Positions 1,937 through 39,686 of a stretch of 43,615 nt of DNA are shown here, in pieces. The position numbers and the translations under genes are program-made. How positions within the stretch are numbered: the stretch's first letter is position 1; every line of letters starts with the position of its first letter. The notes beneath the pieces are model-generated. The model saw nothing but the letters and a program-made list of their open reading frames with translations. It had not been told where the DNA came from and made no database searches. The stretch is from Candidatus Bipolaricaulia bacterium (GTDB taxonomy: Bacteria > Bipolaricaulota > Bipolaricaulia > JBHIAT01), in assembly GCA_046758705.1 (NCBI GenBank), contig JBHIAT010000009.1:1-43615 (forward strand). The letters run 5' to 3'.

Positions 1937-1946
1937 TCTCCCTCGA

Positions 1947-18366: not shown

Positions 18367-18381
18367 ACGGTATTGACTCGG

Positions 18382-18410: not shown

Positions 18411-18435
18411 ACGAATGTTTGCGGTAATATCCACA

Positions 18436-20735: not shown

Positions 20736-20745
20736 GGCAACCTCC

Positions 20746-22554: not shown

Positions 22555-25071
22555 TTAGCGTTTCATCCTTTCGTTATCCGGATCGAACAGGGGCGTGCTT
22601 CCGACGATCTCGACGGTGGCCGGATACCGCTCTGCAAAGTACTCTACAAACAGCTTTGTTCCGACCTGTGCGTATTCAGGGGGGAGGTAACCGAGCAGGA
22701 TGTGCTTGCCCACCGAAGGTCCGGCACCTGCACTCGTCACATACGATCGCCTGCCGTTGCGATCCACGATCGACTCGCCGTCCGGGTTCAAGATCGGCTC
22801 ATGACCAAGCATATAGCGAGGTTCGCCGGAGGCAGATCGGTGATTGTCCACCGTGAGCGTGCACAGCAGGGCGGCCGGTTGTTCGTCTCGCGCCCGTAAA
22901 TACGCGTCCCTGCCGATAAAATCCTGGCGTTTGACCTTGGGACGGGCAATGCCGGCCTCAACGGGGTTGTACTCCGTCTCCAGTTCGTGCCCGTAGAGGC
23001 GATATCCTTTCTCAAGGCGTGCCGTGGTGCCGTACACGCCGATGCCGGCGGGCACCACACCGAACGGTTGACCGGCTTCCCATAGGATATCCCACAGGCG
23101 CTGTCCCTGCTCCATGGGCGCATAGAGTTCCCAGCCGAGCTCGCCCACATAAGAGATGCGCAGCGCCCACACCCTTATCTCTCCAATGGTGATGTCCTTG
23201 GCGATTGCGAAAGGGAAGGCCTCATTGGAAACGTCGTCGTCCGTGACCGATCCCACGAGATCACGCGCAGACGGCCCCCAAACCCCGACCGTACACAAGG
23301 CTGAGGTCACATCGTGGAGCTGCACCGAACCGTCGTCGGGAAGGTGGTCTTGAAACCATTTCTTATCTACATTTCCCAAGCCGCCCCCAGTGATCACACG
23401 GAAATCGTTCTCGCCACGCCGCATGATGGTCAAATCGGCCTCCATGCCGCCATGCTCATTCAGAAAGGGCGTATAAACCGCCTTCCCGACGGGGACGTCC
23501 ATGTTTGCCACCGCCATGTGCTGCAGGTAGTCCAACGCCCCGGGGCCGGACACATCGAACTTTGCAAACGCACTGATATCGATCATGGCCACCCGATCGC
23601 GCATGGCCAAGTGCTCGGCATTGATGATGGGCGACCACCATCGCGCGTCCCACTCGGCGGGGCGGTCGAGAACCCGGTCACCGTATTCTTCCAGCAACTT
23701 CTGATTCGATTCATACCAATGCGGCCGTTCCCAGCCTGCGGTTTCAAAGAAGACCGCGCCGAGTTCCTGCTCACGTGCGTAGAACGGGCTGAGCCGCACA
23801 TCGCGGGCAGACTCCCATTGTTCGGCAGGATGGACAGCGTCGTATGTTTTGTTGTATCCTTCGGTGGCGCGCGCGTTGATATACGTCTCGGTCCGGGCGT
23901 ACTCGTAGAAGCGCGCGATGTCCACCTCATGGGGGTCCAGTTCTGGAGCGCCGTCCGTCATCCATTCAGTGATCAGCCGTCCGAACCCGGCGGCCTCTTT
24001 GATCCAGATGGCGGCTGCCGACCACAAACCGCGCACCTCAGGCGTCTCCCCAAGCACCGGCGCGCCGTCAGGAGCCAGCGAGATCAGCCCGTTGACAGCA
24101 TGCTGGATGACCACATTCTCATCGTCCAGGAGGTCGGGCAGAAGCTGCAATGCATGTTCCATCTGCTCTTCAAAATCTTCTTGCGTAAACGGAAGCTCGG
24201 TGGGAGAGAGCTTTGCTTCCTCTATCGAGGGGATATCGTCGGGGGCGTGTAGGATCGGCCGATGCGCATATGAGCCAATTTCCATAGCACTCCCGTTCTG
24301 ACGCTCGTACATCAAGACACTCATGTCTCGTATAATGGGGTACTCAATTTCCGACTTTGTACCGGCAAACTGCTCGATGGGTCCAACGCTGATCATCTGG
24401 TGCACGACGGGTACCAGCGGTATAAACGCGCCCGCCATGCGCGCGATACGGGGGCTCCATACGCCGCATGCGATCACCACGGTCTCGGTGCGTATCTCTC
24501 CTCGATCCGTGTTTACCCCGTGTACGCGGCCGTTCTCCACATCGATTCCTGTGACCTCAGTATTGGCATGGACGCTGAGGGCATCCAACTCTTGGGCCGC
24601 TTCCCGCATCAGGGTCCCGGCCTGCAGCGGATCGACCACACTGACGTCGGGGCTCCACATGGCACCCAGAATCCGCTCGATGTTGACGAACGGTAATAGC
24701 TTTCTGACCTCCCGGGGCGTAATCAGCTCCGCCTCTTCTCCCCAGGATTTGGCTGACGCGATCCGGCGTTTGAGTTCCTGCATGCGCGTTTCGGTGCGCG
24801 CCAGCTCCACTCCTCCGCTCTCTCTATAAACACCTAACGCTTTATACTGCTCCATGCTGTCCCGTGTGAGCTTGGTCATCAACTTGGAGTGATCGATGGG
24901 GAAGATAAAGTTCGAGGCATGTCCCGTGGAACCGCCCGGGTTGGGAAGCGGTCCTTTATCTAACAGCACAATCTCTTTCCAGCCCTTCTTGGCAAGATGG
25001 TAGACCATACAATTCCCCATGATGCCCGCACCGATCACCACGACGTTTGCCTGCTTAGGCAATGTGCTCAT
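22555..25071 (-). CDS. Dimethylglycine oxidase/dehydrogenase-like flavoprotein (FAD domain plus GcvT domain)
   Basis: IGAGIMG, GGSTGHAS (covalent-FAD His position), GWERP, RISYVGELGWELY, RLEKGYR; GGAGG RBS. Confidence 0.9.
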   Translation of the reverse strand: MSTLPKQANVVVIGAGIMGNCMVYHLAKKGWKEIVLLDKGPLPNPGGSTGHASNFIFPIDHSKLMTKLTRDSMEQYKALGVYRESGGVELARTETRMQELKRRIASAKSWGEEAELITPREVRKLLPFVNIERILGAMWSPDVSVVDPLQAGTLMREAAQELDALSVHANTEVTGIDVENGRVHGVNTDRGEIRTETVVIACGVWSPRIARMAGAFIPLVPVVHQMISVGPIEQFAGTKSEIEYPIIRDMSVLMYERQNGSAMEIGSYAHRPILHAPDDIPSIEEAKLSPTELPFTQEDFEEQMEHALQLLPDLLDDENVVIQHAVNGLISLAPDGAPVLGETPEVRGLWSAAAIWIKEAAGFGRLITEWMTDGAPELDPHEVDIARFYEYARTETYINARATEGYNKTYDAVHPAEQWESARDVRLSPFYAREQELGAVFFETAGWERPHWYESNQKLLEEYGDRVLDRPAEWDARWWSPIINAEHLAMRDRVAMIDISAFAKFDVSGPGALDYLQHMAVANMDVPVGKAVYTPFLNEHGGMEADLTIMRRGENDFRVITGGGLGNVDKKWFQDHLPDDGSVQLHDVTSALCTVGVWGPSARDLVGSVTDDDVSNEAFPFAIAKDITIGEIRVWALRISYVGELGWELYAPMEQGQRLWDILWEAGQPFGVVPAGIGVYGTTARLEKGYRLYGHELETEYNPVEAGIARPKVKRQDFIGRDAYLRARDEQPAALLCTLTVDNHRSASGEPRYMLGHEPILNPDGESIVDRNGRRSYVTSAGAGPSVGKHILLGYLPPEYAQVGTKLFVEYFAERYPATVEIVGSTPLFDPDNERMKR

Positions 25072-25151
25072 TGCACACCTCCCTCTGTCTTTGGGTTGAC
25101 AAGGACAACAACAGAATAACTATACTATAAAATAGGATCAAGGAGGAAGAC

Positions 25152-26216
25152 ATGATCGATTGTGATGTCCACAACGACTGGCCGTCGGCCGAAGTGTTGC
25201 TCCCGTACATGGATCCTAACTTTCGCGACTATCTGCAGCGCGGGGAATTGCCCGGTCCGGACGGCTCATTCCCGCATGCGCACCGGCCGTGGCTCCATCC
25301 CGAAGGTTTTATGCGCACTGACGTGAGCGACGACCGACACCCCGGCGCCGATTACGACGCCATGCGGGAAAAACTGCTGGACCGTTACGACATCGATTAT
25401 GCGATTCTGACCAGCGAGGAGGCAATTGAAGTCTCGACGTTGGGGAACCCGTATTATGCTTCCGCGTTGGCGCGCGCCCACAACGACTGGATGATCGATA
25501 CCTGGCTGACCTGGGATCCTCGCCTCAAAGGTTCGATCGTCGTGGCCCCACAAGATCCGACCGGGGCCGCTGCGGAGATCCGGCGTGTCGGTTCCCATCC
25601 CGATGTCGTCCAGGTCTTGATCTCCAGTGGATCGCAGCGACCGTACGGCGATCCGTTCTATCACCCGATCTGGGAGGCGGCGGCCGAAATGGAGCTGGTC
25701 ATCGGTGCTCACCTCGGCGGGCAAGGGGGCGTCAACTTCAATCCCATTGGATGCGGACCGACGACGTTCTTCTGGGAGACCCATGCGCTGTTGTGCGAGA
25801 CGGGCATGGCCCATGTGGCGAGCTTGATCGCGCACGGCGTGTTTGAAAAATGGCCTGATCTTACCTTTGTGCTGATCGAGTGTGGCGTCGCCTGGCTGCC
25901 AGGGATCCTCTGGCGTCTGGATGCCGATTACAAGGCATTACGCAAGGAGACCCCGTGGCTGAAGAAGCTGCCCAGCGAGTACGCGCGCGACCACATCCGC
26001 TTATCCACCCAGCCGCTTGAGCAACCTCAAAACGTTGAGCAGCTGTGGGCCGTGCTGGAAGCCATAGACGGAAAGCACACGCTGTTGTTTGCGTCGGATT
26101 ATCCGCACTGGGATTTCGACGACCCGACCCGGCTGCGACTCCCATCGGATTGGAAAGAGGACATCTTTGACACCAACGCACGGAAGGTGTATCGTCTGCC
26201 CTCGGCAAATAACTGA
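25152..26216 (+). CDS. Amidohydrolase_2-fold metalloprotein, possibly an amidohydrolase-related dinuclear oxygenase
   Basis: IDCDVH, YHPIWEAA, GAHLGG, GVFEKWP, LIECG, FASDYPHWDFDDP; TGATG coupling to a Rieske gene. Confidence 0.8.
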   Translation: MIDCDVHNDWPSAEVLLPYMDPNFRDYLQRGELPGPDGSFPHAHRPWLHPEGFMRTDVSDDRHPGADYDAMREKLLDRYDIDYAILTSEEAIEVSTLGNPYYASALARAHNDWMIDTWLTWDPRLKGSIVVAPQDPTGAAAEIRRVGSHPDVVQVLISSGSQRPYGDPFYHPIWEAAAEMELVIGAHLGGQGGVNFNPIGCGPTTFFWETHALLCETGMAHVASLIAHGVFEKWPDLTFVLIECGVAWLPGILWRLDADYKALRKETPWLKKLPSEYARDHIRLSTQPLEQPQNVEQLWAVLEAIDGKHTLLFASDYPHWDFDDPTRLRLPSDWKEDIFDTNARKVYRLPSANN

Positions 26217-26617
26217 TGAAAGTGAAAGATCAAGAAGATAAACGAGGTAAACGAAAGAGGCCCACCCGATCCTTTGTCTGCAAGGCGACCGATCTCGCGC
26301 CCGGTGAACGCCTCATTCTCGAGGTGAATGGGCGTAGTATCGGCATCTTTAATGTGGAAGGGCGTTTCTTCGCGCTTCTAAATTACTGTCCGCACACAGG
26401 TGGAGCGTTGTGCCAGGGACCGCTCACCGGCACAGCGTTACCTACAGCGGACTACGAGTACGTGTACGGCCGCGAAGGGCGCATTTTACGTTGTGCCTGG
26501 CATGGCTGGGAGTTCGATATCGAGACCGGTCAGGCGCTGGCTGACCCTAGAATCAAAGCGCGGACGTATCAGGTTGTCGTCGAAGACAGCGACGTATTTG
26601 TTGACTTCAAAAACTAG
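26216..26617 (+). CDS. Rieske [2Fe-2S] ferredoxin
   Basis: NYCPHTG...RCAWHGWEFD (CxH...CxxH). Confidence 0.93.
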   Translation: MKVKDQEDKRGKRKRPTRSFVCKATDLAPGERLILEVNGRSIGIFNVEGRFFALLNYCPHTGGALCQGPLTGTALPTADYEYVYGREGRILRCAWHGWEFDIETGQALADPRIKARTYQVVVEDSDVFVDFKN

Positions 26618-26646
26618 TTGAAAACTTAGTCAACGTGTGTTATGAT
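26618..26646 (+). promoter_or_regulatory. sigma70 promoter of the gntR-dmdA-like-phn operon
   Basis: TTGAAA-17 nt-TATGAT with extended TG. Confidence 0.7.
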
Positions 26647-26655
26647 GCTTCTGTG

Positions 26656-26671
26656 ATTGGTATATACCAAT
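26656..26671. promoter_or_regulatory. GntR(HutC/PhnF)-type operator
   Basis: Perfect 16-bp palindrome ATTGGTATATACCAAT just downstream of the -10; half-site GTATACCA at 26681-26688. Confidence 0.8.
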
Positions 26672-26707
26672 AATCCATTCGTATACCATCTTGGATACCG
26701 AACCGCT

Positions 26708-27454
26708 ATGGATCGACTGATAGACCGTCTCACCACGGCTGTACCGATGTACGTCCAAATTGCCGACAGTTTGCGCGATCGGATTGAGTCGGGCGAGCTG
26801 GCGCCGGGCGATCGTTTGCCTTCAGAGCGAGAATTGAGCGAGATGCTGGGCGTCAATCGAATGACCCTGCGGCGAGCACTCGGCATGCTCGAGACGCAAG
26901 GGTTGCTGGTCCGCCGGCAGGGGGATGGCACCTACGTCGCCGAACCCAAGATTGAGCGGGAGGCCGGTCAGCTAGTTCCCTTCACCAAAGGGATGAAACG
27001 CCGGGGGTACATACCGGGCGCCACGGTGATCATGCTCGAACAACGGCCTGTCGAGGCCTCTGTCGCCCGCCATCTGAAATTGCCCGTTTCGTCACCGGTC
27101 TACTCCATTCATCGGCTGCGATTCATCAATCACGAGCCGGTGATGTTGGAAAGGTTCATGATCCCGGTCCATCGCTTTCCTGGATTTGAGAGTCACGATT
27201 TGGAGAAGCGCTCGGCGTATGAAATCATGGAAACGGAGTATGGGGTTTCCATCAGCCAGGCACGGCAGAGCCTGGAGCCGGTCATCGCCACGGAATACGA
27301 GGCCGAATGGCTGGGTATTGAACCGGGCGCGCCGCTCATGTTGGAGCGGCGTCTGGCCTTTGACCAGGACGATCAGCCTGTTGAATATGGCAAGGACCTG
27401 TATCGTGGCGACCGCTTTCGATTCGTTACCGAAATGGCTCCATTAGAGTTATAG
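26708..27454 (+). CDS. GntR family, HutC subfamily (wHTH plus UTRA) transcriptional regulator
   Basis: PMYVQIA..LPSERELSEMLGVNRMTLRRAL..GDGTYV; UTRA ending YRGDRFRF. Confidence 0.95.
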   Translation: MDRLIDRLTTAVPMYVQIADSLRDRIESGELAPGDRLPSERELSEMLGVNRMTLRRALGMLETQGLLVRRQGDGTYVAEPKIEREAGQLVPFTKGMKRRGYIPGATVIMLEQRPVEASVARHLKLPVSSPVYSIHRLRFINHEPVMLERFMIPVHRFPGFESHDLEKRSAYEIMETEYGVSISQARQSLEPVIATEYEAEWLGIEPGAPLMLERRLAFDQDDQPVEYGKDLYRGDRFRFVTEMAPLEL

Positions 27455-27480: not shown

Positions 27481-28650
27481 ATGACCAAAGATTTCCGCCC
27501 CGCCACCGTTTACTTCTATCCCCGCATTCGCCTATCGCCCTACTTTGAAGCTACCCAACGCCACGATGCCAAAGCGTACAGCGCCTACAACCACATGTAC
27601 ATCCCCAGTTGGTACGGCGACACCGAGGAGGAGTACTGGGCGCTGGTCAACGACGTGGTGATTTGGGATGTGGCCGTGGAGCGGCAACTGGAAATCAAGG
27701 GGCCCGACGGCTTCGCTTTCACCAACATGCTCACTCCGCGGGACCTGACCCAGTGCGAAGTCGGTCAATGTATGTATGTCATGATCACTGATGAGAATGG
27801 CACCATTATCAACGACCCGGTGCTGTTGCGCTTGGATGAGAACCATTTCTGGTTGTCGCTGTCCGACAGCGATGTGCTACTGTGGGCCAAGGGTCTGGCC
27901 TACAACTCAGACTGGGACGTGGAGCTCGGTGAACCGGACGTGTCGCCGGTGCAGGTGCAGGGACCAAAGTCCCCGAAAGTCATGCAGGATCTCTTTGGCG
28001 ATCGTGTCCTCAAGCTGCCCTACTACTATCATTACGAGACCACGTTAGATGACATGGAAACGGTGGTGACGCGCACCGGCTACACCCAGGAACTTGGCTA
28101 CGAGATTTTCTTGAAGAACAGCAGCCGTGACGGCCTCAAGTTGTGGGACACGATGATGGAGGCCGGCAAACCGTATAACATCAGACCGGCCGGTCCTTCA
28201 GTCATTCGTCGCGTGGAGGCCGGCATCCGCGATTACGGTCGGGACATCTTTCGCCTGGAGAGTAACCCGTACGAGGTCGGGTTCGGCTGGACCGTTGATC
28301 TAGACCAAGAGGCCGACTTCATCGGTAAGGAGGCGCTCAGACGGATCAAGGCCGAGGGCGTGAAGCGCAAGTTGGTCGGGGTGGAGATTTACGGTGATCG
28401 AATCGAAGGCTCGAACGAAGATTACTGGCCGGTGCACAAGGACGGCCAACGCATCGGTCAGGTCACTTCCACCATTTACTCGCCGCGCTTGGAGAAAAAC
28501 ATCGGTTACGCCATGGTGCCCATCGAATACGCCGATCTAGGAACGGAGTTCAGTGTCGATGCGCGCGGCACCGAGAGGACGGCCAAGGTGGTCGAAGAAC
28601 CATTCATCAAGGGATCCGAAAAAGGAGATCCCAAAGCAGCCAACGGCTAG
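27481..28650 (+). CDS. GcvT-fold THF-dependent demethylase, DmdA-like (copy 2)
   Basis: RIRLSPYF, YSAYNHMYIP, IWDVAVERQLEIKGPDG, TRTGYTQELGYEIF; clear paralog of 19572-20735. Confidence 0.85.
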   Translation: MTKDFRPATVYFYPRIRLSPYFEATQRHDAKAYSAYNHMYIPSWYGDTEEEYWALVNDVVIWDVAVERQLEIKGPDGFAFTNMLTPRDLTQCEVGQCMYVMITDENGTIINDPVLLRLDENHFWLSLSDSDVLLWAKGLAYNSDWDVELGEPDVSPVQVQGPKSPKVMQDLFGDRVLKLPYYYHYETTLDDMETVVTRTGYTQELGYEIFLKNSSRDGLKLWDTMMEAGKPYNIRPAGPSVIRRVEAGIRDYGRDIFRLESNPYEVGFGWTVDLDQEADFIGKEALRRIKAEGVKRKLVGVEIYGDRIEGSNEDYWPVHKDGQRIGQVTSTIYSPRLEKNIGYAMVPIEYADLGTEFSVDARGTERTAKVVEEPFIKGSEKGDPKAANG

Positions 28651-28741: not shown

Positions 28742-29860
28742 TTGCAGATTCCAGGATGGAAGGACAAGGTGCTGTTTACGCCGGGGCCGCTGACCACCAG
28801 CCAGACGGTGAAACAAGCGATGCTGCGGGATGTGGGCTCCTGGGATTTCGAGTTTGTTCAACGGGTCAAGGAAGTTCGCCGCAAATTGCTTGACGTGGGC
28901 GGCGTCGCCGAGGGTGATTACATCGCCATCCCGATGCAGGGCAGCGGCACCTTTGGCCTTGAATCCGTCATTTCTTCAACGGTACCGCCGGACGGCAAGC
29001 TGTTGGTGGTCATCAACGGTGCCTATGGCCGGCGCATCGTGAACATCGCCTCGGTGCTGAAGATCGATACCGTTACGTTGACTTACGCTGAGGACCGCCA
29101 GCCCGATCTCCAAGACGTCACCGCTGCGCTGGAAGCCGATGAGGACATCACTCATGTGGCCGTGGTGCATTGCGAGACGACCACCGGCATCCTCAATCCA
29201 GTAGCGAAGATCGGAGCGATCATAAAGCAGTTCGACCGGCGCTACTTTGTGGACGCCATGAGTAGTTTCGGTGCGGTCCCGCTGAATCTGGTCGAATGTG
29301 GGATCGATTATCTGGTCTCATCCGCCAACAAATGTATCGAAGGGGTGCCCGGGTTCTCGTTTGTGCTGGCCAAACGGAACTCGCTGCTGGCCACAGAGGG
29401 CTATGCCCGCAGCCTGAGTTTGGACCTGTTGGCACAGTGGAAAGGTCTGGAGGCCGATGGACAGTTCCGCTTCACGCCGCCCACCCATGCCCTGCTCGCC
29501 TTCCATCAAGCCCTGGTGGAGTTGGAGCAAGAGGGCGGGGTGGAGGCGCGGGCCGCTCGTTATCGGGCCAACTACGAGACGCTGGTGGCCGGCATGCGGG
29601 CCATGGGCTTTGAGGAATATTTGCGGCCAGAAGACCAGGGCTACATCATCACCTCGTTTCGCTACCCGACCCACCCCAATTTTACTTTCGAAGCGTTTTA
29701 TGAGCGGTTGAATCAGAAGGGCTATGTGATCTATCCCGGCAAGGTGAGCAGCGCCGATTGCTTCCGCATCGGCAGTATTGGCCGGATTTTTGAATCTGAC
29801 GTGCGCGATCTGCTGGCGGCGATCCGCGAAACGCTGACCGACATGGAGGTTGAACTGTAA
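28742..29860 (+). CDS. phnW: 2-aminoethylphosphonate-pyruvate transaminase
   Basis: [59 protein letters not shown] start. Confidence 0.96.
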
Positions 29861-29862: not shown

Positions 29863-30693
29863 ATGGAGTTCACATATCGCCGGTCATACCGAGGACCTGT
29901 CAAACTCGTCATTCTCGACTGGGCCGGTACAACGATGGACTACGGCTGTTACGCACCTGCGGTGGTGTTCATCGAAGTGTACAGGCGCAAAGGGGTGGAC
30001 GTCACGATGGAGCAGGCGCGCCGTCCGATGGGCCTGCACAAACGCGACCACATCAAAGCGATCAGCCGATTTGACCAGGTGGCACAAAAGTGGCAGGAAG
30101 TGTACGACAGGCCCGTCACAGAACAGGACATTGACGACATGTTTGCCGACTTCCAGCCGCTGCAGCTGCAATGCCTGGCCGATTATGCCGATCTCATTCC
30201 GGGCACGCTGGAGACGGTGGCCGCCTTGCGTGAGCGCGGCATTCTCATCGGTTCAAGTACCGGCTACTTCACCGAGGCGATGGAGCTGCTCAAAGAGGAA
30301 GCGGCCAAGCGGGACTACGTGCCTGACAGCAGCGTGTGCGCCACCCAGGTACCCGCTGGTCGTCCACACCCGTGGATGGTGTTGCAGAATATGTTCAACA
30401 CCGGCGTCTATCCGCCCGAAGCGGTGGTGAAAGTTGACGACACCAAACCTGGGATTGCCGAGGGTCTGAACGCGGGCACGTGGACGATTGGCCTGGCCAA
30501 AACGGGCAACGAAGTGGGGCTGAACCTTGAGGAGATCAACGCACTCGACCCTGAAACCCTGGAGCGCAAGGTTGCCCAGGCACGTCTGGAGCTGGCCAAG
30601 ATGGGCGCACACTATGTGGTCGATGAAATCTTGGAGATCGTGCCGATCATCGACGATATCAATACGAGACTGGCACGTGGCGAACGCCCATGA
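29863..30693 (+). CDS. phnX: Phosphonoacetaldehyde hydrolase (phosphonatase)
   Basis: LDWAGTTMDYGCYAP, ARRPMGLHKRDHI (Schiff-base Lys), GRPHPWM, VKVDDT. Confidence 0.97.
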   Translation: MEFTYRRSYRGPVKLVILDWAGTTMDYGCYAPAVVFIEVYRRKGVDVTMEQARRPMGLHKRDHIKAISRFDQVAQKWQEVYDRPVTEQDIDDMFADFQPLQLQCLADYADLIPGTLETVAALRERGILIGSSTGYFTEAMELLKEEAAKRDYVPDSSVCATQVPAGRPHPWMVLQNMFNTGVYPPEAVVKVDDTKPGIAEGLNAGTWTIGLAKTGNEVGLNLEEINALDPETLERKVAQARLELAKMGAHYVVDEILEIVPIIDDINTRLARGERP

Positions 30694-30720: not shown

Positions 30721-32100
30721 GTGATGGATACCAGCCAGGAAGGGCTTTCCAGATTGAAATCCGAAGGAGACATTAACCTTTCGTCCCGCCGGGCCAAGTG
30801 GCAGGCGCAGACGCTGGACGAGAAAACCCGCGCGCTGCTTGAAGAGGACGCACGCTACTTTCTGCATCAATCGCTGTCTACTCCCTGTCTGAACGCGCTG
30901 CGTGCCTGCGAAGGCATCTACATTGAAGACCTGCAGGGCCGACGCTACATGGACTTTCACGGCAACAACGTCCACCAGGTCGGCTTTTCCAACCCGGCCG
31001 TCATCGCAGCCATCAAGGCCCAGCTCGACGAGCTCTCTTTCTGCACCCGGCGCTACACCAACCGTGTAGCGGTAGACCTGGCAAAAAAGCTGGCCGAACT
31101 CGCGCCCGGCAATCTGAACAAGGTGCTGTTCTGCCCTGGCGGAACCAGTGCAATCGGCATGGCACTCAAGCTGGCGCGAGTTGCCACCGGCCGCCACAAG
31201 ACGATTTCGATGTGGGATTCTTTTCACGGCGTCTCGTTGGATGCGATCTCGATCGGGGGCGAGGCCCTGTTTCGAAGCGGGATCGGCCCACTGCTGTCGG
31301 GCACCGAGCACGTGCCACCTCCCGACGAGTATCGCTGCCTGTGGGAATGTCACCTGCGCGGCGGCTGCGATCTAAAGTGTGCCAGCTACATCGAGTACGT
31401 GCTCGAAAAAGAGGGGGACGTCGCAGCCGTGATCGCAGAGCCGGTGCGGACCACACCGTACATTCCCAAGCCCGAATACTGGCAAGCGGTGCGGGTGGCC
31501 TGCGACCGGCACGGCGCGCTGCTGATCTTCGATGAGATCCCGAATTCCCTCGGCCGCACCGGCACCATGTTCACCTGTGAGACCTTCGGCATGGTGCCCG
31601 ACATTCTGGTGCTGGGCAAGGGGTTGGGAGGCGGCATTTTCCCGCTCGCCGCCCTGATCGCCCGCGAGGACTTAGACGTGGCGGCCGACCGGGCACTGGG
31701 ACACTACACCCACGAGAAAAACCCGGTCGCCTGCGCAGCCGCCCTGGCGACGCTTGAGTACATCGAAAGCCACAACTTAATGGCACACGCCCGTGATCTG
31801 GGGCGCTACGCCTTGGACCGTATGCGGGAAATGATGGAGCGGCATCCCTTAATCGGCGATGTGCGTGGCCTGGGCTTGCTGCTCGGGATAGAACTCGTGC
31901 AAGACCGGGTGACCCGCGAGCAGGCCAGCGACGAAGCCGAGGCGGCCATGTACTGTGCGCTCAGCAAGGGATTGAGCTTCAAACTGACGATGGGCAACGT
32001 TCTCGCACTCACCCCTCCGCTGACGATCACTCGCGAGGAGATGGACCGGGCGCTGGATATCATTGATGATTGCCTGGCATTTGGCAAGAGGAGGCAGTGA
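30721..32100 (+). CDS. pbfA: (R)-1-hydroxy-2-aminoethylphosphonate ammonia-lyase-like PLP enzyme (class III aminotransferase fold)
   Basis: SEGDINLS, YFLHQSLSTPCL, MDFHGNNVHQ, GHYTHEKNP, LGKGLGGG; position after phnWX. Confidence 0.88.
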   Translation: MMDTSQEGLSRLKSEGDINLSSRRAKWQAQTLDEKTRALLEEDARYFLHQSLSTPCLNALRACEGIYIEDLQGRRYMDFHGNNVHQVGFSNPAVIAAIKAQLDELSFCTRRYTNRVAVDLAKKLAELAPGNLNKVLFCPGGTSAIGMALKLARVATGRHKTISMWDSFHGVSLDAISIGGEALFRSGIGPLLSGTEHVPPPDEYRCLWECHLRGGCDLKCASYIEYVLEKEGDVAAVIAEPVRTTPYIPKPEYWQAVRVACDRHGALLIFDEIPNSLGRTGTMFTCETFGMVPDILVLGKGLGGGIFPLAALIAREDLDVAADRALGHYTHEKNPVACAAALATLEYIESHNLMAHARDLGRYALDRMREMMERHPLIGDVRGLGLLLGIELVQDRVTREQASDEAEAAMYCALSKGLSFKLTMGNVLALTPPLTITREEMDRALDIIDDCLAFGKRRQ

Positions 32101-32104
32101 ACCC

Positions 32105-34546
32105 GTGCAAGACCAAGCTCAAGTTGTCATGATCGGCGGTGGCATCGTCGGATGCAGTATCGCCTATCACCTAGCCAAGTTGGGCTGGACCGATGTCATC
32201 CTGGTTGAAAAAGGCGAGCTGACCAGCGGCACGACGTTTCACTCGGTTGGCCTGGTGAGCCAATTCCGGACCTCGCCGACCTCGATGCAGTTGATGAATT
32301 ACAGCATCAACCTTTACAACGAGTTGAAGGCGGAAGTCGGAGCGTCTCTGGGTTGGCAGCAGGTGGGCAGCTTGCGTTTGGCGTCCAGCAAAGACCAGCT
32401 CAAAGCTCTGCAACGAAATGTCAGCCAAGCCAAAGCGCTTGGCCTGACCGTCGAGATCATCTCACCTATCGAGGCGCTGAAGATCTTCCCGTACATGACG
32501 GACAAGAGCCTGTACGGGGCGGTGCACATTCCCGACGACGGCTATCTCGATCCGAACGGCATCACTGCTGAACTGGGCCAGCGCGCCAAACAACTGGGCG
32601 TGGCTATCCACACCAACGTGCGCGTCACCGGAATCGAATGCTCACCGTCCGGCGACGTCACCCAGGTGAACACCGATCACGGCTCGATCAAGACCGAGTA
32701 TGTGGTCAATGCCGCCGGGATGTGGGCGCCGCAAATCGGGGCGATGGTGGGCGTCAATCTGCCGATGGTGCCCATCATGCACCAGTACATCGCCACCGAT
32801 CCGATTCCCGGTTATGAGTTGCCGCTTGAGACGCCGGTCGTGCGCGACCCGGATAACCTGGTCTACATCAAGGAAGAGGTGCGGGGCTTTCTCATCGGTG
32901 GCTTTGAACGGAACCCCAAGGCCTGGTCCGTGGATGGGGTGCCCTGGGAGTTCACCCAGCAATTACTCCCCCCTGAATGGAAACTGTTTTACGAGCTGCT
33001 GGAAGGCGCCATGCGACGGGTTCCCATTCTGAAGCGGGCAGAGGTCGTGCATCGGGTCAACGGACCGGAAGCGATCACGCCCGATGGCCACTACCTTTTG
33101 GGACCGGTGCCTGGCCGGCATGGTTTTTACGTGGCGGCCGGCATGTCTCTCAATGGCATCGCTGGGGCCGGCGGCGTAGGCAAAATCATGGCCGAGTGGA
33201 TCGTCGAAGGGGAACCCTCCCTCGATGTCCACGAGGTGAACGTGCGGCGCTTCGGGCGACACTATGCCGACAAGCACTACGCCACCGAGCGCGCCCGCGA
33301 GGTGTACAAATATTACTACTTCCTCCGTTACCCCGAAGACGAAAACGAGTGGGGTCGCCCGTTGCGGACCAGCCCCCTCTATCCACACTTGCGAGAACTT
33401 GGGGCAGTGTTCGGTGAGAAAAATGGTTGGGAGCGGGTCAACTACTTCGAACCCGGCCGGTCCTGGCGGCGGGCCGGTGCGGATCAACGGGCCTGGGGCT
33501 GGGGCCGTCCACCCTACTTCCAGCAGATCGGCGAAGAGCACCGCGCGGTGCGAGCGCGCGTCGGCCTGTTGGATATGACGTCGTTCGGCAAAATTGACGT
33601 GCGCGGCCCCGGCGCGTTAGCCCTGCTACAACGGCTGGCCGACAACAACATCGACAAGCCCGCCGGCAGCCTGACTTACACCCAGTTTCTCAACGCCCGC
33701 GGTGGTATCGAGAGCGACCTGACCATCAGCCGCCTGGCCGAAGATCACTTCCGGGCGATCACCGGCACCGCCTTTCTAGCCAATGACTTGGGCTGGATCA
33801 AGACACACATGCCGGGCGACGGCTCGGTGACGGTGCGTGATGTCACAGATGATTTGGCCTGCCTGAGCCTGTGGGGACCATATGCCCGGGATGTGCTCCA
33901 AACCGTCACCACTCGTGATGTTTCCAACGAAACCTTCCCCTACATGAGCACCCAAGCCATTGACGTCGCCGGTGTCCCGGTATGGGCACAACGGGTCAGT
34001 TACGCGGGCGAGTTGGGCTGGGAGCTTTACACCCCACCCGACCAAGCCGTCGGAGTCTGGGACGCGCTGATGGACGCGGGCGAACCGTTCGGCATTCAGC
34101 CCGTCGGCTACAAAGCCCTCGAGTCACTGCGCTTGGAAAAGGGATACCGCTTCTGGGGGGCGGATATGACGCCCGACGAGAACCCCTATGAGGCGGGGTT
34201 AGGATTTTGTGTGAAGTTAAAGAAGGGCGAGTTCATCGGCCGGGAAGCGCTGCTAGAAATCAAGGACCAGGGCATCAAACGCAAGCTCTGCGCGCTGACA
34301 CTGGACGACGATGTCTGCATGATTTACGGCGGTGAGTCCGTCTACAGCCATGGCCGTGTGGTCAGCTACGTGCGCAGTGGTGGCTACGGCTATACCGTCG
34401 GGAAGAACATCGCTTACGCCTATCTGCCGCTGGAACTGGCTGAGGTCGGGACAACCGTCAAAGTCGAGTCCTTCGACGAACACATCAGCGCACAGGTGGT
34501 GGCCGAACCGCTGTACGATCCGCAAGGCACACGCTTACGATCATGA
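32105..34546 (+). CDS. Sarcosine/dimethylglycine dehydrogenase-like flavoprotein (FAD domain plus GcvT domain)
   Basis: IGGGIVG, SGTTFHSVG, NGPEAITPDG, GWERVNYF, RVSYAGELGWELY, LRLEKGY; GTG start with GAGGAGG. Confidence 0.9.
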   Translation: MQDQAQVVMIGGGIVGCSIAYHLAKLGWTDVILVEKGELTSGTTFHSVGLVSQFRTSPTSMQLMNYSINLYNELKAEVGASLGWQQVGSLRLASSKDQLKALQRNVSQAKALGLTVEIISPIEALKIFPYMTDKSLYGAVHIPDDGYLDPNGITAELGQRAKQLGVAIHTNVRVTGIECSPSGDVTQVNTDHGSIKTEYVVNAAGMWAPQIGAMVGVNLPMVPIMHQYIATDPIPGYELPLETPVVRDPDNLVYIKEEVRGFLIGGFERNPKAWSVDGVPWEFTQQLLPPEWKLFYELLEGAMRRVPILKRAEVVHRVNGPEAITPDGHYLLGPVPGRHGFYVAAGMSLNGIAGAGGVGKIMAEWIVEGEPSLDVHEVNVRRFGRHYADKHYATERAREVYKYYYFLRYPEDENEWGRPLRTSPLYPHLRELGAVFGEKNGWERVNYFEPGRSWRRAGADQRAWGWGRPPYFQQIGEEHRAVRARVGLLDMTSFGKIDVRGPGALALLQRLADNNIDKPAGSLTYTQFLNARGGIESDLTISRLAEDHFRAITGTAFLANDLGWIKTHMPGDGSVTVRDVTDDLACLSLWGPYARDVLQTVTTRDVSNETFPYMSTQAIDVAGVPVWAQRVSYAGELGWELYTPPDQAVGVWDALMDAGEPFGIQPVGYKALESLRLEKGYRFWGADMTPDENPYEAGLGFCVKLKKGEFIGREALLEIKDQGIKRKLCALTLDDDVCMIYGGESVYSHGRVVSYVRSGGYGYTVGKNIAYAYLPLELAEVGTTVKVESFDEHISAQVVAEPLYDPQGTRLRS

Positions 34547-34910: not shown

Positions 34911-35970
34911 ATGGCCCTGCTGACGACCACCATCGGGGCTTACCCCAAACCCGATTATGTGCCGACACCGGACTGGTTCCGAGCGAGAAATCTGAACATT
35001 CCCCATCCTACCGAAGCCTACGATCAGTTCTTACACACCCAGGCAGGTGACGCCGAAGCGCTCGAAGCGCTCCTCGTCCGCGGGACCCACGAAGCGGTAC
35101 TCGACCAGGTGAACGCCGGCATCGACGTGCCCAGCGACGGGGAGATCCGGCGGGAAAACTACATTCACTATCATTGCCGCCATCTCGATGGCATCGATTT
35201 TTCGCACCTTACCCAAAAGACTATGCGAGCCGGGACGTGGGAGGCCGAAGTGCCAACGATTATCGGCCCGATCAAAGCCCGCGACCGATTTCTGCCCCAG
35301 GACTGGGAGATCGCCCAGTCGGTGACCGATCGCCCGATCAAGATCACCGTCCCCGGCCCCTTGACCCTCACCGACACCCTGGCCGACCTCTACTACGACG
35401 ATGAAAAGCGCCTGGGCGCCGACCTGGCCGATGCGCTCAACGTGGAGATACAGGCCCTCGCCGAGGCCGGATGTACCTGGTCAAGTGGATGAGCCGGTGT
35501 TCGCTCGCGAGCCGGAGAAAGCGCTGGCTTTCGGGATCGAAAACCTGGAGCGGTGCTTCCACGGTGTGCCGTCACACGTCGTGTGTGTCGTCCATATGTG
35601 CTGCGGCTACCCCGACAAGCTTGACAACGAAGATTATCCCAAGGCGGATCCGGCTGCCTACTTCATGTTGGCCGATGCGGTTGACGCATCGAGCATTCAG
35701 GCAGTTTCCATCGAGGACGCGTACCGGTACAACGATCTGACCCTATTGGAGCACTACACGAGGACTAAAGTCATCTTCGGCGTGATTGCCATCGCCAGGA
35801 CCAGGCTTGAGCCCGTGGAAGAGATCGCCGTCCGCCTCACTGAGGCACTGAACCACATTGATGCTGATCGGCTGATCGCTGCACCAGACTGTGGCCTGGG
35901 GATGCTTGATCATGCCACGGTGAGGGCCAAGCTGGCCAACATGGTGACCGCCGCCCGCGCTGTGGGCTGA
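34911..35970 (+). pseudogene. Cobalamin-independent methionine synthase II family (core/catalytic-domain-only MetE-like), frameshifted near 35481
   Basis: TTTIGAYPKP, SDGEIRRENY, KITVPGPLT, then frame change at TGG-T-CAA-GTG-GAT-GAG (W[I]QVDEP), HMCCG, SIE, APDCGLG. Confidence 0.85.
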
Positions 35971-36135: not shown

Positions 36136-37686
36136 ATGTTATCCACCAAGAGGATCCAGATTATCTTGAGTCTACTGGTTGTCACCGCGATGACATTCGC
36201 GGCCTATGTACCGGCACTAGCGGAGGAACCGACGGGCACCCTGGTGAGAGCCATCTCAACCTTCCCCAACTCTCTGGACTTGCCGATAGCCGCGGAACGG
36301 CAGGCCAGCACCACTGCCTGGATGCTGTATGACACGCTCGTTTGGGTAAACGATGCGGGCAGAGTCGTGCCCGCGCTGGCCAAGAGCTGGGAGATCTCCG
36401 AGGACGGCGCGGAGTACACTTTCCACCTGCGCCAGGACGTCGTTTTCCACAACGGCGAGCGGTTCACCGCCGATTCGGTGGTCTTTTCCTGGGAACGCGG
36501 AAAAAACCCCGAGATGCAATGGTCCGAGAAATGGGCGCTGGCCGAGTCGGTGAAGGCGGTTGACACTTACACCGTCAAGGTCTCAACCGGGCAGCCCATG
36601 CCGCTCTTTTTGAGGATCATGGCCGACAACTGGGCGATCGTGCCCCCCAGATACATCGCTGCAGTGGGCGAGGAGGGCTTCGCCAAGCGCCCGATCGGCA
36701 CCGGGCCGTTCATGTTTGTCGAGTGGGTGAAGGGCGACCGCATCGTCATGGATGCCAATCCGAACTACTGGCGGGAAGGAGTGCCCAGGATCCAGAGGCT
36801 GATCTACCGGCCCATCCCAGAGTCCTCCACGCGCGTGGCCGCCATCCAGACGGGCGAGGTCGACATCGTCACCCGTCTGAGTGCAGAAGAGGCGACGAGT
36901 CTGCTGGGTGTGCCCGGCATCAAGATCATCAAGTATCCGCTTGATCGTGTCTGGTACGTCGCTTTCAACAACCTGACCAGCGGTGTAGGCCAGCCGACCG
37001 AGGACGCTCGCGTCCGACAGGCTATGAACTACGCCGTTGACGTTGCGGCGATTATTGACGCGCTGTTTGAGGGCTTCGCTCGGGAGTCCACCGGCTACGT
37101 CACACCGGCCAATTTGGGCTACGACGAAACCCTCATGCCATTTGGCTACGACCCGGAAAAGGCGCGCATGCTGCTGGCCGACGCCGGCTATCCGAATGGG
37201 TTCGCTATAGACTTCGCCTGCCCGATTGGCGCCTATACCCACTTTGAGGAGGTCTGTGAGGCCATCCAGGGCTACCTGGGCGAGGTGGGGATCGAGATCG
37301 ATCTCGAGTTCATGGAGTCCGGTCATTACTGGGACCTGGAAGCCAACAAACAGCTTCCGCCCCTGTTCGGCGACAGTTGGTCCGAATCCACCGGTGAGGC
37401 GTTCCCCCGCTTGCAAGGCGCGCTGGGGGGGTGGGACGCCAGCTTCTCCTCCTGGTCCGATCCGGAAATCGACCGGTTGCTCGATGCGATCTCGGTGACC
37501 GTGGATCAGGACGCCCGGGCGGCACTGTACGTCGAGCTACAGCGTTACATGCACGAAAACCCACCCTTCATCTACCTCTATGAACCGTTTACCTTCGAGG
37601 TCATCAGCACCCGCGTGCAGAACTACAACCCGCGTGCGGCTGAAAACTACTTCCTCTTTGATACCTTCGTCGTTGCAGAGAATTAG
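36136..37686 (+). CDS. ABC transporter substrate-binding protein, family 5 (Opp/Dpp/Nik type)
   Basis: Signal peptide (ALA-EE); PALAKSWEISEDG..YTFHLRQDVVFHNG, PIGTGPF, VRQAMNYAVD. Confidence 0.95.
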   Translation: MLSTKRIQIILSLLVVTAMTFAAYVPALAEEPTGTLVRAISTFPNSLDLPIAAERQASTTAWMLYDTLVWVNDAGRVVPALAKSWEISEDGAEYTFHLRQDVVFHNGERFTADSVVFSWERGKNPEMQWSEKWALAESVKAVDTYTVKVSTGQPMPLFLRIMADNWAIVPPRYIAAVGEEGFAKRPIGTGPFMFVEWVKGDRIVMDANPNYWREGVPRIQRLIYRPIPESSTRVAAIQTGEVDIVTRLSAEEATSLLGVPGIKIIKYPLDRVWYVAFNNLTSGVGQPTEDARVRQAMNYAVDVAAIIDALFEGFARESTGYVTPANLGYDETLMPFGYDPEKARMLLADAGYPNGFAIDFACPIGAYTHFEEVCEAIQGYLGEVGIEIDLEFMESGHYWDLEANKQLPPLFGDSWSESTGEAFPRLQGALGGWDASFSSWSDPEIDRLLDAISVTVDQDARAALYVELQRYMHENPPFIYLYEPFTFEVISTRVQNYNPRAAENYFLFDTFVVAEN

Positions 37687-37705
37687 GAGTAGAGAAGTAG
37701 TTAGG

Positions 37706-37745
37706 AAGGGGGAGGGCGCTCTAAGCGTCCTCCTCTTATTTTCTT
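37706..37745 (+). terminator. Hairpin after the SBP gene (partial terminator or 3' stabiliser)
   Basis: AAGGGGGAGGGCGCT-CTA-AGCGTCCTCCTCTT followed by a T-rich tract. Confidence 0.6.
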
Positions 37746-37794
37746 CTCTATTCTGGATTCTGGATCGTGAAGTACCTGATAGCTGGGGGTCCGA

Positions 37795-38715
37795 ATCCAA
37801 CGTTACCTGCTTTCACGTTTTGCCCAGTCGATCTTGGTTCTTTTCGGGGTCCTGATCCTGGTCTTCACCATGGTCCGTCTCACCGGCGACCCGGCGGCGT
37901 TGATGGTTTCACGCCAGGCCACTCCGGAGCAGATCGAAGCGTTTCGGGAGGCCATGGGCTTCAACCGTCCACTCCTCGTCCAGTTTGGGGATTTCATCAC
38001 TGGAGCGGTGAGGGGGGATTTCGGCAATTCGCTGCACTATCGAATACCGGCGATGCCCCTGATTCTGGAACGGCTGCCCGCGACGATCCAGTTGGCCAGC
38101 ATAGCACTGTTGATGGCGATGGTGATCGGCATCCCGTTAGGAGTGGTCGCCGGTTCCAATCCGGGCAGCATATGGGATTCGATTGCGCGGGGTCTGGGTC
38201 TGTTGGGCCAGAGCATCCCCAACTTCTGGCTCGCCCTACTGCTTATCACTTTCTTTGCAGTGAACCTGGGGTGGTTCCCGTCGTTTGGCCGGGACGAGCT
38301 GAAATCGGTGGTCTTGCCCGCGTTCGCGCTCAGCGTGTTTACCATGGGCCAGTTGGTCCGCTTGACACGCTCCGCCGTATTGGAAATCAGGGGGGAGGAC
38401 TACATTCGCACTGCCAACAGCAAAGGGTTGGCGGCCAGGAGGATCTACATCCGGCATGTGCTCAAGAATGCAGCCATCCCGTTGGTGAGCGTGCTGGGCG
38501 TCCAGTTCGGTTACCTGCTCAGCGGTTCCATCTATATCGAAACCATCTTTTCCTGGCCTGGCCTCGGCCGACTGCTGGCCGACTCGATCGGTGTGCGCGA
38601 TTTTCCACTGATACAGGCCATCGCCTTTTTCACCAGTGTGGTCGTCATCGCGTTGAGTTTGTTAACGGATGTTGCCTATGCTGTGATCGATCCACGCATC
38701 AGGTACGGGAGATAA
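37795..38715 (+). CDS. ABC permease, OppB/DppB-like (apparent ATC start)
   Basis: (I)QRYLLSRFAQSILVLFGV.., GDFGNSL, EDYIRTANSKGL, ETIFSWPGLG, DPRI. Confidence 0.9.
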   Translation: MQRYLLSRFAQSILVLFGVLILVFTMVRLTGDPAALMVSRQATPEQIEAFREAMGFNRPLLVQFGDFITGAVRGDFGNSLHYRIPAMPLILERLPATIQLASIALLMAMVIGIPLGVVAGSNPGSIWDSIARGLGLLGQSIPNFWLALLLITFFAVNLGWFPSFGRDELKSVVLPAFALSVFTMGQLVRLTRSAVLEIRGEDYIRTANSKGLAARRIYIRHVLKNAAIPLVSVLGVQFGYLLSGSIYIETIFSWPGLGRLLADSIGVRDFPLIQAIAFFTSVVVIALSLLTDVAYAVIDPRIRYGR

Positions 38716-38743
38716 GCCAGGAGTAAAGACAGGAGATAAACCC

Positions 38744-39670: not shown

Positions 39671-39686
39671 TTGGAAAGTGACCGGA

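Follow-up and report, generated by a model that had tools for sequence, protein, structure and literature searches.

Which reaction is catalysed by a protein that bears an amidohydrolase family name, when its gene overlaps that of a Rieske ferredoxin and both lie among genes for 2-aminoethylphosphonate (AEP)? The question is raised by the genes P0001 and P0002, at positions 25,152 to 26,617 of a 43,615-nucleotide stretch of DNA (the window; contig JBHIAT010000009.1 of assembly GCA_046758705.1) from Candidatus Bipolaricaulia bacterium. The window is the whole of contig C9 of a 3.70-Mb metagenome-assembled genome (MAG) that is 93.9% complete, hereafter the own genome; its other contigs are given C numbers and loci fetched from other sources L numbers. 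P0001 and P0002 are very probably an amidohydrolase-related dinuclear oxygenase (ARO), a monooxygenase, and its Rieske partner. As their role we tentatively propose O2-dependent N-demethylation or N-dealkylation of quaternary or tertiary N-methyl-AEP, or of its 1-hydroxy form (N-methyl-HAEP).

Enzyme class of the gene pair

The pair was delimited as follows.

25142..25146, plus strand: ribosome-binding site GGAGG of the P0001 gene, read from the sequence 5 nt 5' of the ATG at 25152
25152..26216, plus strand: oxygenase gene P0001, 354 aa (PF04909 Amidohydro_2, Pfam E 4.4e-43)
26216..26617, plus strand: stand-alone Rieske [2Fe-2S] ferredoxin gene P0002, 133 aa (PF00355, Pfam E 2e-14)

A preliminary description of this DNA had named a TIM-barrel protein with DxH, H, E and SDYPHWD motifs, coupled to a stand-alone Rieske ferredoxin and lacking an adjacent reductase gene. 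All of the motifs were found in the P0001 translation (D5-V6-H7, H187, E243 and S315-D-Y-P-H-W-D321). The coupling and the stand-alone form were confirmed by the PF00355 match and by the one base that the TGA stop of P0001 and the ATG of P0002 have in common (TGATG), and Pfam and family scans located no reductase gene in the window. NCBIfam offers no model for P0001. In an alignment of 40 homologues D3, D5, H7, H187, E243, D316, Y317, P318 and H319 were invariant, and W320 and D321 were at least 90% conserved.

The ARO class was defined by Liu et al., JACS 2024 (PMC10811679), its members being traced via neighbouring Rieske-ferredoxin genes. In the class papers its authors count 3,307 Rieske-associated candidates and ∼17,000 AROs (PMC10811679/PMC13154177), and AROs are described as hydroxylating unactivated C-H bonds (PMC10401708; PMC10811679). 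As set out in PMC13154177, AROs are recognised by an N-terminal D-x-H on strand 1, which holds metal 1 ligands, and by a C-terminal D-x-P-H-x-D/E loop for metal 2, expected after ∼200 or more residues. Three secondary-sphere positions are said there to divide Mn-using 'low-potential' from diiron 'high-potential' AROs; Table 1 of that source gives the low-potential (Mn) members a hydrophobic gamma1, a hydrophilic gamma2, an aromatic gamma4 and a Rieske ferredoxin neighbour, and gamma5 is the position proposed to touch the Rieske partner.

In P0001 D5-V6-H7 falls in predicted strand E2-6 of an AlphaFold2 model, and D316-Y-P-H319-W320-D321 supplies the C-terminal loop. The low-potential positions are V6 (gamma1), T87 (gamma2, at the end of strand 2, placed by alignment to the 'AILT' strand end of the ARO SfbO), A314 (gamma3), W320 (gamma4) and F322 (gamma5). 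With gamma1, gamma2, gamma4 and the overlapping Rieske gene all of the low-potential kind, P0001 is assigned by these sequence criteria to the low-potential, Mn-type AROs and would use Mn/Fe or Fe2. H187 and E243 align with a His and a Glu of 8sm7 and 8sm6 and are the putative remaining ligands, a third His and a bridging carboxylate.

Sequence searches of the PDB returned 8sm7 (2.3e-87), 8sm6, which is SfbO (3.2e-76), then 8sm9 and 8sm8, all titled 'Amidohydrolase 2'; AibH2 (6m1w_B, 3.1e-54), AibH1 and PtmU3 (3.3e-20) were next and LigW came later (2.7e-18). A search of the ESM Atlas gave solely 'amidohydrolase family protein' clusters. The AlphaFold2 model, derived from the 40-sequence alignment, had a predicted local distance difference test score (pLDDT) of 87.7 and a predicted template modelling score of 0.90. 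Foldseek placed it at template modelling scores (TM) of 0.80-0.87 to five solved AROs and listed 8sm7 at 0.87, SfbO at 0.84, 8sm8, 8sm9 and AibH2 at ∼0.83 and PtmU3 at 0.75, as against 0.59-0.67 for the listed mononuclear PF04909 enzymes (decarboxylases, ACMSD and LigJ; LigW 0.63, ACMSD 0.61). Since P0001 has both ARO motifs and comes closest to SfbO, D3EI84 (8sm7) and AibH2 in sequence as well as in fold, it is of the ARO type and not a mononuclear PF04909 hydrolase or decarboxylase (LigW, ACMSD, gamma-RSD, LigI/J). The earlier reading of the pair as a dimetal monooxygenase rather than a hydrolase therefore holds at class level, judged from the motifs, PDB matches, predicted fold and Rieske gene. 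ARO/Rieske pairs are a class already described (Liu et al., JACS 2024 and 2026), of which P0001/P0002 is a further member.

The top sequence and fold match, D3EI84 ('G. y4 TruffO', PDB 8SM7, Geobacillus/Paenibacillus sp. Y412MC10), is an orphan low-potential ARO with 42% identity to P0001. It has the D-x-H and D-x-P-H-W-D motifs in common with P0001, as well as H and L where SfbO has R232 and R235, and according to PMC10811679 and PMC13154177 it has a Rieske ferredoxin neighbour, as does P0001. Being only ∼42% identical, it falls outside the group of P0001 orthologues (60-82% identity); as an orphan it offers no substrate hint. SfbO/SfbR of Litorilinea aerophila (Chloroflexota; 8SM6, 'sulfonate beta-monooxygenase') is an ARO with a Rieske ferredoxin like P0001/P0002, at 37-38% identity. 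SfbO prefers a Mn/Fe cofactor and hydroxylates the C-H next to N of 2-aminoethylsulfonate buffers, which leads to N-dealkylation, and AEP strongly perturbs its electron paramagnetic resonance signal (PMC10811679). Where the ferredoxin is proposed to make contact, SfbO has the aromatic gamma4/gamma5 residues W341/W343 (PMC13154177) and P0001 has W320/F322; SfbO 'Y280' as printed was left unmapped on P0001, chain residue 280 being Asp in the alignment numbering. Unlike P0001, SfbO has no phosphonate cluster described in the main texts of PMC10811679 and PMC13154177. AibH1H2/AibG, the 2-aminoisobutyrate hydroxylase of Rhodococcus, combines the ARO fold, Mn/Fe and a Rieske carrier (AibG; PMC10811679), as is proposed for P0001/P0002. 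AibH1H2 is a heterodimer with a non-catalytic paralogue, whereas the own genome has a single ARO gene, and the carbon that it hydroxylates is an amino-acid methyl group and not one bound to N. The dedicated reductase of AibH1H2 is AibF.

P0002 carries the cluster ligands C58-P-H60 and C93-A-W-H96, and C58-P-H60 and C93-x-x-H96 were invariant in 21 sequences. By its C-x-H...C-x-x-H pattern it is a small soluble Rieske-type ferredoxin of the ∼100-130 aa class, free of a catalytic domain; its best PDB sequence match was BphF (1fqt, 2.3e-12), with NdoA-type and TodB ferredoxins also among the best. ARO-associated Rieske ferredoxins have an insert of ∼14-15 residues between the cluster motifs compared with the BphF type (P0002 residues 61-92, window ∼26396-26491), an additional invariant Cys (C66) and an invariant W98 in C-x-W-H-G-W.

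Database homologues of P0001 numbered 2671 at E<=1e-30, the best 120 being 69-82% identical. Loci were fetched from 79 genomes and 65 metagenomes, and 137 of them hold an ARO gene whose product has 55% identity or more to P0001 (the ARO loci); the high-GC loci L011 and L014, in which many called open reading frames had no family, carry little weight in the counts. A Rieske gene was present within the fetched locus in 126 of the 137 ARO loci, and of the 84 whose flank measured 8 kb or more, 81 had one; in most of the 79 genome loci it lay ∼1 kb downstream of the ARO gene on the same strand. The ARO-Rieske pairing is therefore not due to chance. A complex prediction for P0001 and P0002 gave weak support (median score 0.59, best of 3 controls 0.00), with at least 96% contact agreement between runs and a partner pLDDT of at least 82. 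Of 157 solved complexes 116 come up to the mark applied, as do 2 of 215 mismatched pairs, and scores of 0.60 or below take in only 18 of the 157 solved complexes but both passing mismatches. A similar ARO-Rieske pair was modelled, not solved, in PMC13154177. The real evidence for the partnership is the conserved gene order rather than the complex prediction.

Proposed reaction and the surrounding cluster

That P0001 carries out oxidative N-dealkylation of a methylated amine is evenly balanced; that the amine is N-methyl-AEP or N-methyl-HAEP is somewhat less probable than that. In the proposed reaction the reduced Rieske protein would pass electrons to the dimetal site, which would activate O2 and hydroxylate an aliphatic C-H bond at a carbon bound to N in the methylated amine, preferably an N-methyl. 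Collapse of the hemiaminal would amount to net demethylation with release of formaldehyde, and the formaldehyde or one-carbon unit might be caught on tetrahydrofolate by the adjoining DmdA-like GcvT proteins. The substrate, a quaternary or tertiary N-methyl-AEP or its 1-hydroxy form, would be imported by the ABC transporter of the cluster. The product would go on through two DMGDH-like dehydrogenases linked to electron-transfer flavoprotein (ETF) to AEP or HAEP, which PhnW or PbfA would turn into phosphonoacetaldehyde for cleavage by PhnX. The genes concerned flank the pair on both sides.

19572-20753, minus strand: GcvTa, DmdA-like GcvT protein (Pfam/NCBIfam scans)
20746-21750, minus strand: ETF alpha (Pfam/NCBIfam scans)
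21754-22539, minus strand: ETF beta (Pfam/NCBIfam scans)
22555..25071, minus strand: DMGDH1, second DMGDH-like FAD/folate enzyme, divergent from the ARO gene (Pfam scan)
26618..26646, plus strand: promoter-like site TTGAAA-17-TATGAT, TG-extended, opening a separate GntR/phn operon (promoter scan)
26657..26670, plus strand: perfect palindrome TTGGTATATACCAA, probable operator of a GntR/HutC-type regulator (palindrome search)
26657..27454, plus strand: GntR/UTRA regulator, PhnR/PhnF/HutC-like (PF00392 and PF07702; TIGR03337 phnR 133 bits, below cut-off)
27481..28650, plus strand: GcvTb, DmdA-like GcvT-family folate enzyme (NF009133 367.5 bits, cut-off 410; best PDB match DmdA, 3tfh, 1.5e-82)
28742..29860, plus strand: PhnW, AEP-pyruvate transaminase (NF010006 511.9 bits, cut-off 296)
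29863..30693, plus strand: PhnX, phosphonoacetaldehyde hydrolase (TIGR01422 327.2 bits, cut-off 220)
30721..32100, plus strand: PbfA (NF049939 721.2 bits, cut-off 525)
32063..34546, plus strand: DMGDH2, DMGDH-like FAD dehydrogenase with fused GcvT folate domain (DAO, FAO_M, GCV_T, GCV_T_C; best PDB match rat DMGDH, 4pab, 8.4e-177)
34911..35970, plus strand: short MetE-like (Meth_synt_2) gene in two overlapping frames, 34911-35492 and 35401-35970 (family scans; frameshift near 35470-35492)
36136..41718, plus strand: family-5 ABC transporter, comprising a binding protein (36136-37686), two permeases and two ATPases (family scan)

The operons on either side of the pair thus hold N-methyl-oxidising, folate-coupled enzymes and the end-steps of AEP/HAEP breakdown. 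GcvTa and GcvTb are 64% identical and DMGDH1 and DMGDH2 38%; a second ETF pair in the own genome (contig C46) is 43-49% identical to that of the window. For trimethyl-AEP the only published route named in the literature examined is TmpA/TmpB (PMC10590968), so that a cluster with two DMGDH-like demethylases, PhnW, PbfA and PhnX calls for some further enzyme to take off the first methyl group. At this point relatives of the cluster would use MttB and a corrinoid protein, or perhaps a DmdA-like protein, and the window additionally has ARO-Rieske, which is proposed as the N-demethylase for that reason.

These relatives were searched with DMGDH2, giving 31 loci. The closest are from Chloroflexota, with DMGDH2 70-79% identical and GntR 62-68% identical. 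PbfA is 73-79% identical in L159, L160, L161, L164 and L175 and PhnW 69% in L160, and as a set the relatives are PbfA-centred more than PhnW-centred. DMGDH1 and ETF (∼70%; DMGDH1 orthologue 72%) stand together with GntR...DMGDH2 in L157. The ABC transporter of the window recurs in L156 (binding protein 68%, permease 78%) beside GntR-MttB-corrinoid-DMGDH2. An MttB-family gene lies ∼1-2 kb upstream of DMGDH2 in L156, L157, L158 and L159; TIGR02369 scored 346-360 bits on the MttB of L156, L157 and L159; to fall short of its cut-off (525) is what non-pyrrolysine members would be expected to do. A MtgC-like corrinoid protein was confirmed beside MttB in two loci only, L156 (directly before DMGDH2) and L157 (before MttB). 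In L161 the MttB position is filled by a DmdA-like protein (81% to GcvTb), in company with DMGDH2 (70%), PbfA (73%), GntR and one further protein each of the DMGDH-like and DmdA-like kinds. MTHFR-like genes accompany the clusters of L157, L161 and L175. This type of Chloroflexota cluster looks like an undescribed B12/folate-dependent route for N-methylated AEP or HAEP.

The clusters span L156:6969-13647, L157:51-12448, L159:96-5923, L160:9279-20515, L161:3748-17345 and L175:921-8628, all in marine or sediment Chloroflexota MAGs. They combine GntR, a DMGDH-like enzyme and PbfA, with PhnW or lacking it, and add to these either the MttB-family methyltransferase or the DmdA-like protein; MTHFR-like, URO-D-type methyltransferase or formate-THF ligase genes often lie alongside. 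The L160 cluster ends in a SauS-like acylating aldehyde dehydrogenase instead of PhnX. An MttB of the L156 type (65-68%) was found in 3 of 35 loci with orthologues of the transporter (L186, L201 and L208), with a corrinoid protein detected by tblastn in L186 and L201. In the own genome this MttB lacks an orthologue, the best match, on contig C180, being 31% identical. That 6.3-kb contig carries, at 138-4480, three tandem MttB-family paralogues 24-31% identical to the MttB beside ARO (L081) or DMGDH2 (L156).

The true start of the GntR regulator is probably the ATG at 26708; the TTG start given by the ORF finder is overlapped by the palindrome. An operator-like palindrome of the form ∼(A/T)TGGTnTAnACCA(A/T) lay ahead of the GntR orthologue, or where it begins, in 5 of 5 related loci checked (L156:6925, L157:6898, L160:9214, L161:11225 and L175:6396). 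Elsewhere in the window TTGGTATATACCAA recurred once at up to 3 mismatches, inside GcvTb.

The MetE-like gene is broken just 5' of its '...QVDEP...' stretch, either because it is a pseudogene with a frameshift or through an error of assembly; use of 5-methyl-tetrahydrofolate from the DmdA-like proteins would fit its place behind DMGDH2. Just outside the cluster, window 16127-17563 (plus strand) encodes an NTP-transferase/hexapeptide protein with a paralogue on C77 (52%), 17551-18366 (minus strand) a CbiR-like xylose-isomerase-fold phosphodiesterase, and 18436-19092 (minus strand) an EEP-family protein with a paralogue on C87 (70%); the products of 16127-19092 could have phosphono- or phospho-headgroups as their targets. 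A gene for a type I restriction enzyme R subunit (41978-43615, minus strand) is cut off by the contig end, and what is present encodes the C-terminal part.

Orthologous loci and competing readings

Orthologues of P0001 (60-82% identity) were found in at least four phyla. Among the 137 ARO loci the regulators were LysR (53) and IclR (28), and family-5 binding proteins occurred in 30-32. Genes connected with methylated amines included choline-type OpuAC (9 and 6 of 137 with two queries), BCCT transporters (4), MttB-family (5), DMGDH-like (7) and GBBH/TmpA-like dioxygenases (2: L021 by family scan, L024 by tblastn only); sulfatases were found in 3. Of the 84 loci flanked by 8 kb or more, 18 had one or several of MttB, GBBH/TmpA-like, OpuAC, BCCT, DMGDH-like or CaiB-like genes. 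Chloroflexota ARO loci contributed HIBADH-like (16), metallo-beta-lactamase-fold (16) and enolase-superfamily genes (13), counted per 137. Loops 40-55 and 203-214 of P0001, which match substrate-binding residues of SfbO, are aromatic-rich and near-invariant across all of these contexts. The orthologue group thus appears to have a single head-group as its target, for which a methylated (quaternary) ammonium is the most plausible candidate.

Two of the closest ARO relatives, at 79% (L084:8659-9978 and L001), have a gene for a fused HAD-hydrolase/HD-domain protein directly upstream of ARO-Rieske, and L084 additionally encodes a CaiB-like CoA-transferase and an acyl-CoA dehydrogenase; the own genome yielded no homologue. 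In Plectonema radiosum (L018:128-10075) an ARO-Rieske pair (65%) lies between a polyketide synthase module (KR-ER-ACP-TE) and a nonribosomal peptide synthetase module with a MatE exporter, a context that is biosynthetic rather than catabolic. ARO at E<=1e-40 was found in 0 of 40 class-level relatives of the MAG, so that these supply no vertical context.

NAD(P)H reductases were encoded in ARO loci by GbcB-like (FNR-type) genes in 29 of 137 and by ferredoxin-reductase-type genes in 5 of 137. The best family for the FNR type was the glycine-betaine monooxygenase reductase GbcB (NF058606), at 314 bits against a cut-off of 500. ETF-alpha was found in none of the 137. ETF as the electron donor, an earlier suggestion, thus has no comparative support; the ETF of the window is accounted for by its two DMGDH-like dehydrogenases, and it travels with DMGDH1 in L157. 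GbcB-like and ferredoxin-reductase queries gave no tblastn match in the own genome at E<=1e-8, nor was PF14759 matched there. The sole PF00175 protein of the own genome (contig C109) is PyrK-like and stands beside Oxidored_q6 and 4Fe-4S genes, and was rejected as a credible partner. Since no NAD(P)H reductase was found, electron feedback from the DMGDH-like/ETF steps might occur.

Several observations weigh against N-methyl-AEP or N-methyl-HAEP as the substrate and against the place given to the pair in the pathway. PhnW and PhnX were each found in 0 of 137 ARO loci, which, together with the same count for ETF, makes the phosphonate link unique to the window. PbfA-like matches occurred in 2 of 137 at 28-29% identity, the one scanned (L028) being an AptA-type aminotransferase by NCBIfam, and the combination of ARO-Rieske with PhnW, PhnX and PbfA was seen in this window only. 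Conversely, ARO was found in 0 of the 31 DMGDH2-type loci and 0 of the 35 transporter-orthologue loci, so that the link between ARO and the transporter comes down to L074 and L001, where ARO-Rieske directly abuts an orthologous transporter (permease 74%, ATPase 73% and binding protein 49% in L074; ATPases 70-72% in L001). The near-invariant loops suggest one common substrate or head-group, which could well be something other than a phosphonate. The anion-binding N67, R232 and R235 of SfbO are replaced by H44, H211 and L214 in P0001, with W341 kept as W320, and the sulfonate-binding arginines are thereby lost. ARO and MttB occur together in five loci (L029, L045, L054, L062 and L081) and hence are not substitutes there. 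L161 has neither ARO nor MttB within 17 kb, and DmdA-like proteins may therefore do the quaternary step, with ARO an add-on. ARO-Rieske forms a separate bicistronic transcription unit between two operons, and no palindrome was present in the ARO/DMGDH1 intergenic region at up to 4 mismatches; co-regulation of ARO through the GntR operator is accordingly not supported. Finally, the MAG, 93.9% complete, yielded no cognate reductase. The comparison of neighbourhoods that the preliminary description had called for therefore upheld its Rieske pairing (126 of 137), with nothing for PhnW, PhnX or ETF (0 of 137). Its suggestion of N-methyl hydroxylation stays the best reading in view of the quaternary-amine neighbours and SfbO chemistry, although the phosphonate link does not recur.

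Among the alternatives, the one that survives best is an oxygenase of quaternary amines or osmolytes unrelated to phosphonates (e.g. glycine betaine, choline, carnitine or another betaine akin to these), placed near phn genes through common one-carbon/folate/ETF machinery. We regard this as unlikely. It would explain why orthologues 60-80% identical, with near-invariant loops, are found in Mesorhizobium, Pelagibacteraceae, Pseudomonas, Marinobacterium and Actinomycetota beside LysR/IclR, GbcB-like reductases, choline-type OpuAC, BCCT, sulfatase or MttB and without phosphonate genes, and why the pair is its own transcription unit without a GntR operator. It fits less well with the position of the pair between two operons that form one unit in relatives (DMGDH1-ETF and GntR...DMGDH2 together in L157), with the same orthologous ABC transporter abutting ARO-Rieske in L074 and L001, and with the own genome, in which the queries used found no OpuAC or BCCT homologue.

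Hydroxylation of the phosphonate at C2, the carbon next to N, would follow SfbO more closely and is an improbable alternative, yielding phosphonoacetaldehyde and tri-, di- or monomethylamine directly for PhnX. The same reaction was shown for SfbO on PIPES and MES, giving sulfoacetaldehyde and amine (PMC10811679), and the FAD enzymes PbfC and PbfD also yield phosphonoacetaldehyde and methylamine (PMC10590968). PhnX is part of the window cluster, and HIBADH-like genes, possibly aldehyde- or semialdehyde-reducing, flank ARO in 16 of 137 loci. Such a cleavage would give the two DMGDH-like demethylases, ETF, the two DmdA-like proteins and PhnW nothing to do on that substrate; family scans located no trimethylamine-handling genes in the window, and PhnX is absent from all 137 ARO loci.

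Less probable still is C1 hydroxylation of AEP or N-methyl-AEP, in which P0001 would act like TmpA or PhnY* on another scaffold and the 1-hydroxy-AEP derivatives would end at PbfA; this was the first option of the preliminary description. PbfA lies 4 kb downstream of ARO, the reactivity of AROs with unactivated C-H bonds is on record (PMC10401708; PMC10811679), and the PbfA-centred cluster relatives imply that 1-hydroxy compounds are part of the pathway. The option was not sustained by the comparison: ARO was found in 0 of 31 PbfA-containing relatives, PhnW and PhnX in no ARO locus, and no PbfA orthologue in any, the two matches reaching 28-29% identity and appearing to be AptA-type aminotransferases. 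PhnW and PhnX of the window moreover process AEP without hydroxylation, and the two ARO loci L021 and L024 (the latter by tblastn only) already have a GBBH/TmpA-like dioxygenase.

A non-redox PF04909 enzyme (mononuclear Zn/Mn hydrolase or decarboxylase) with a Rieske gene beside it by chance has in its favour the Pfam family name and the remoter similarity to LigW and gamma-resorcylate decarboxylases, and is hardly credible given D-x-H instead of the motifs of characterised hydrolases and decarboxylases, the D-x-P-H-x-D loop, which section 7 of PMC13154177 reports in no characterised PF04909 hydrolase or decarboxylase, and the Rieske gene kept in 126 of 137 loci.

Known demethylation systems and meaning for the family

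The job proposed for P0001, O2-dependent attack on a carbon at a quaternary N, is that of the Rieske non-haem iron oxygenases GbcAB/BmoAB, CntAB and Stc2. Their catalytic alpha subunit combines a Rieske centre with a mononuclear Fe, whereas P0001 is an unrelated dimetal TIM barrel and its Rieske protein is small and encoded apart. No gene of the size of a Rieske oxygenase was found in the own genome, its largest Rieske-domain open frame being 261 aa. The MttB/MtgC-like corrinoid system, which in relatives occupies the same conserved cluster and stands with the same transporter, plausibly performs the same first demethylation without O2; it differs from P0001 in fold, in its B12 cofactor and in methyl transfer rather than hydroxylation. 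TmpA/TmpB and PbfB/C/D act on the substrate class proposed here (tri-, di- and monomethyl-AEP), and glycine betaine and phosphate are the joint products of TmpA, an Fe/2-oxoglutarate C1-hydroxylase, and the HD-domain oxygenase TmpB (PMC10590968). Unlike the proposed route, none of these enzymes is an ARO or demethylates stepwise onto folate, and no TmpA-like gene was found in the own genome.

The preliminary description had held that either hydroxylation would be new chemistry for the family. This does not stand, as hydroxylation next to N with N-dealkylation was already shown for SfbO (PMC10811679). A literature search, which left subscription journals largely outside its reach, found no paper linking PF04909/ARO or MttB to AEP/PbfA clusters or betaines. 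The placement of ARO-Rieske in an AEP cluster appears to be undescribed, as do folate-linked N-methyl-AEP/HAEP clusters with alternative first-step enzymes.

The class of low-potential AROs was defined only recently and consists almost wholly of orphans, and SfbO is the main low-potential model besides AibH1H2. AEP binds near the cofactor of SfbO, yet its native substrate is not assigned (PMC10811679). An ARO that stands among genes of clear role (PhnW, PhnX, PbfA and two DMGDH-like enzymes) narrows the choice of native substrate to a short, testable list of candidates. The window and its relatives further suggest folate-linked N-methyl-AEP/HAEP demethylation with an apparently interchangeable first step, carried by MttB/corrinoid, DmdA-like proteins or ARO. 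A broader and more speculative reading, which we hold to be doubtful, is that the P0001 orthologue group is a third, unrecognised solution to quaternary-amine demethylation, a Mn/Fe TIM-barrel protein with a Rieske partner, beside the GbcA/Stc2-type and MttB/corrinoid solutions. In the window it would open an undescribed folate-coupled stepwise route from trimethyl-AEP or its 1-hydroxy form to AEP or HAEP and on through PhnW/PbfA to PhnX. If this wider reading is true, many genes for an 'amidohydrolase family protein' beside betaine or choline transporters would encode methylated-amine oxygenases.

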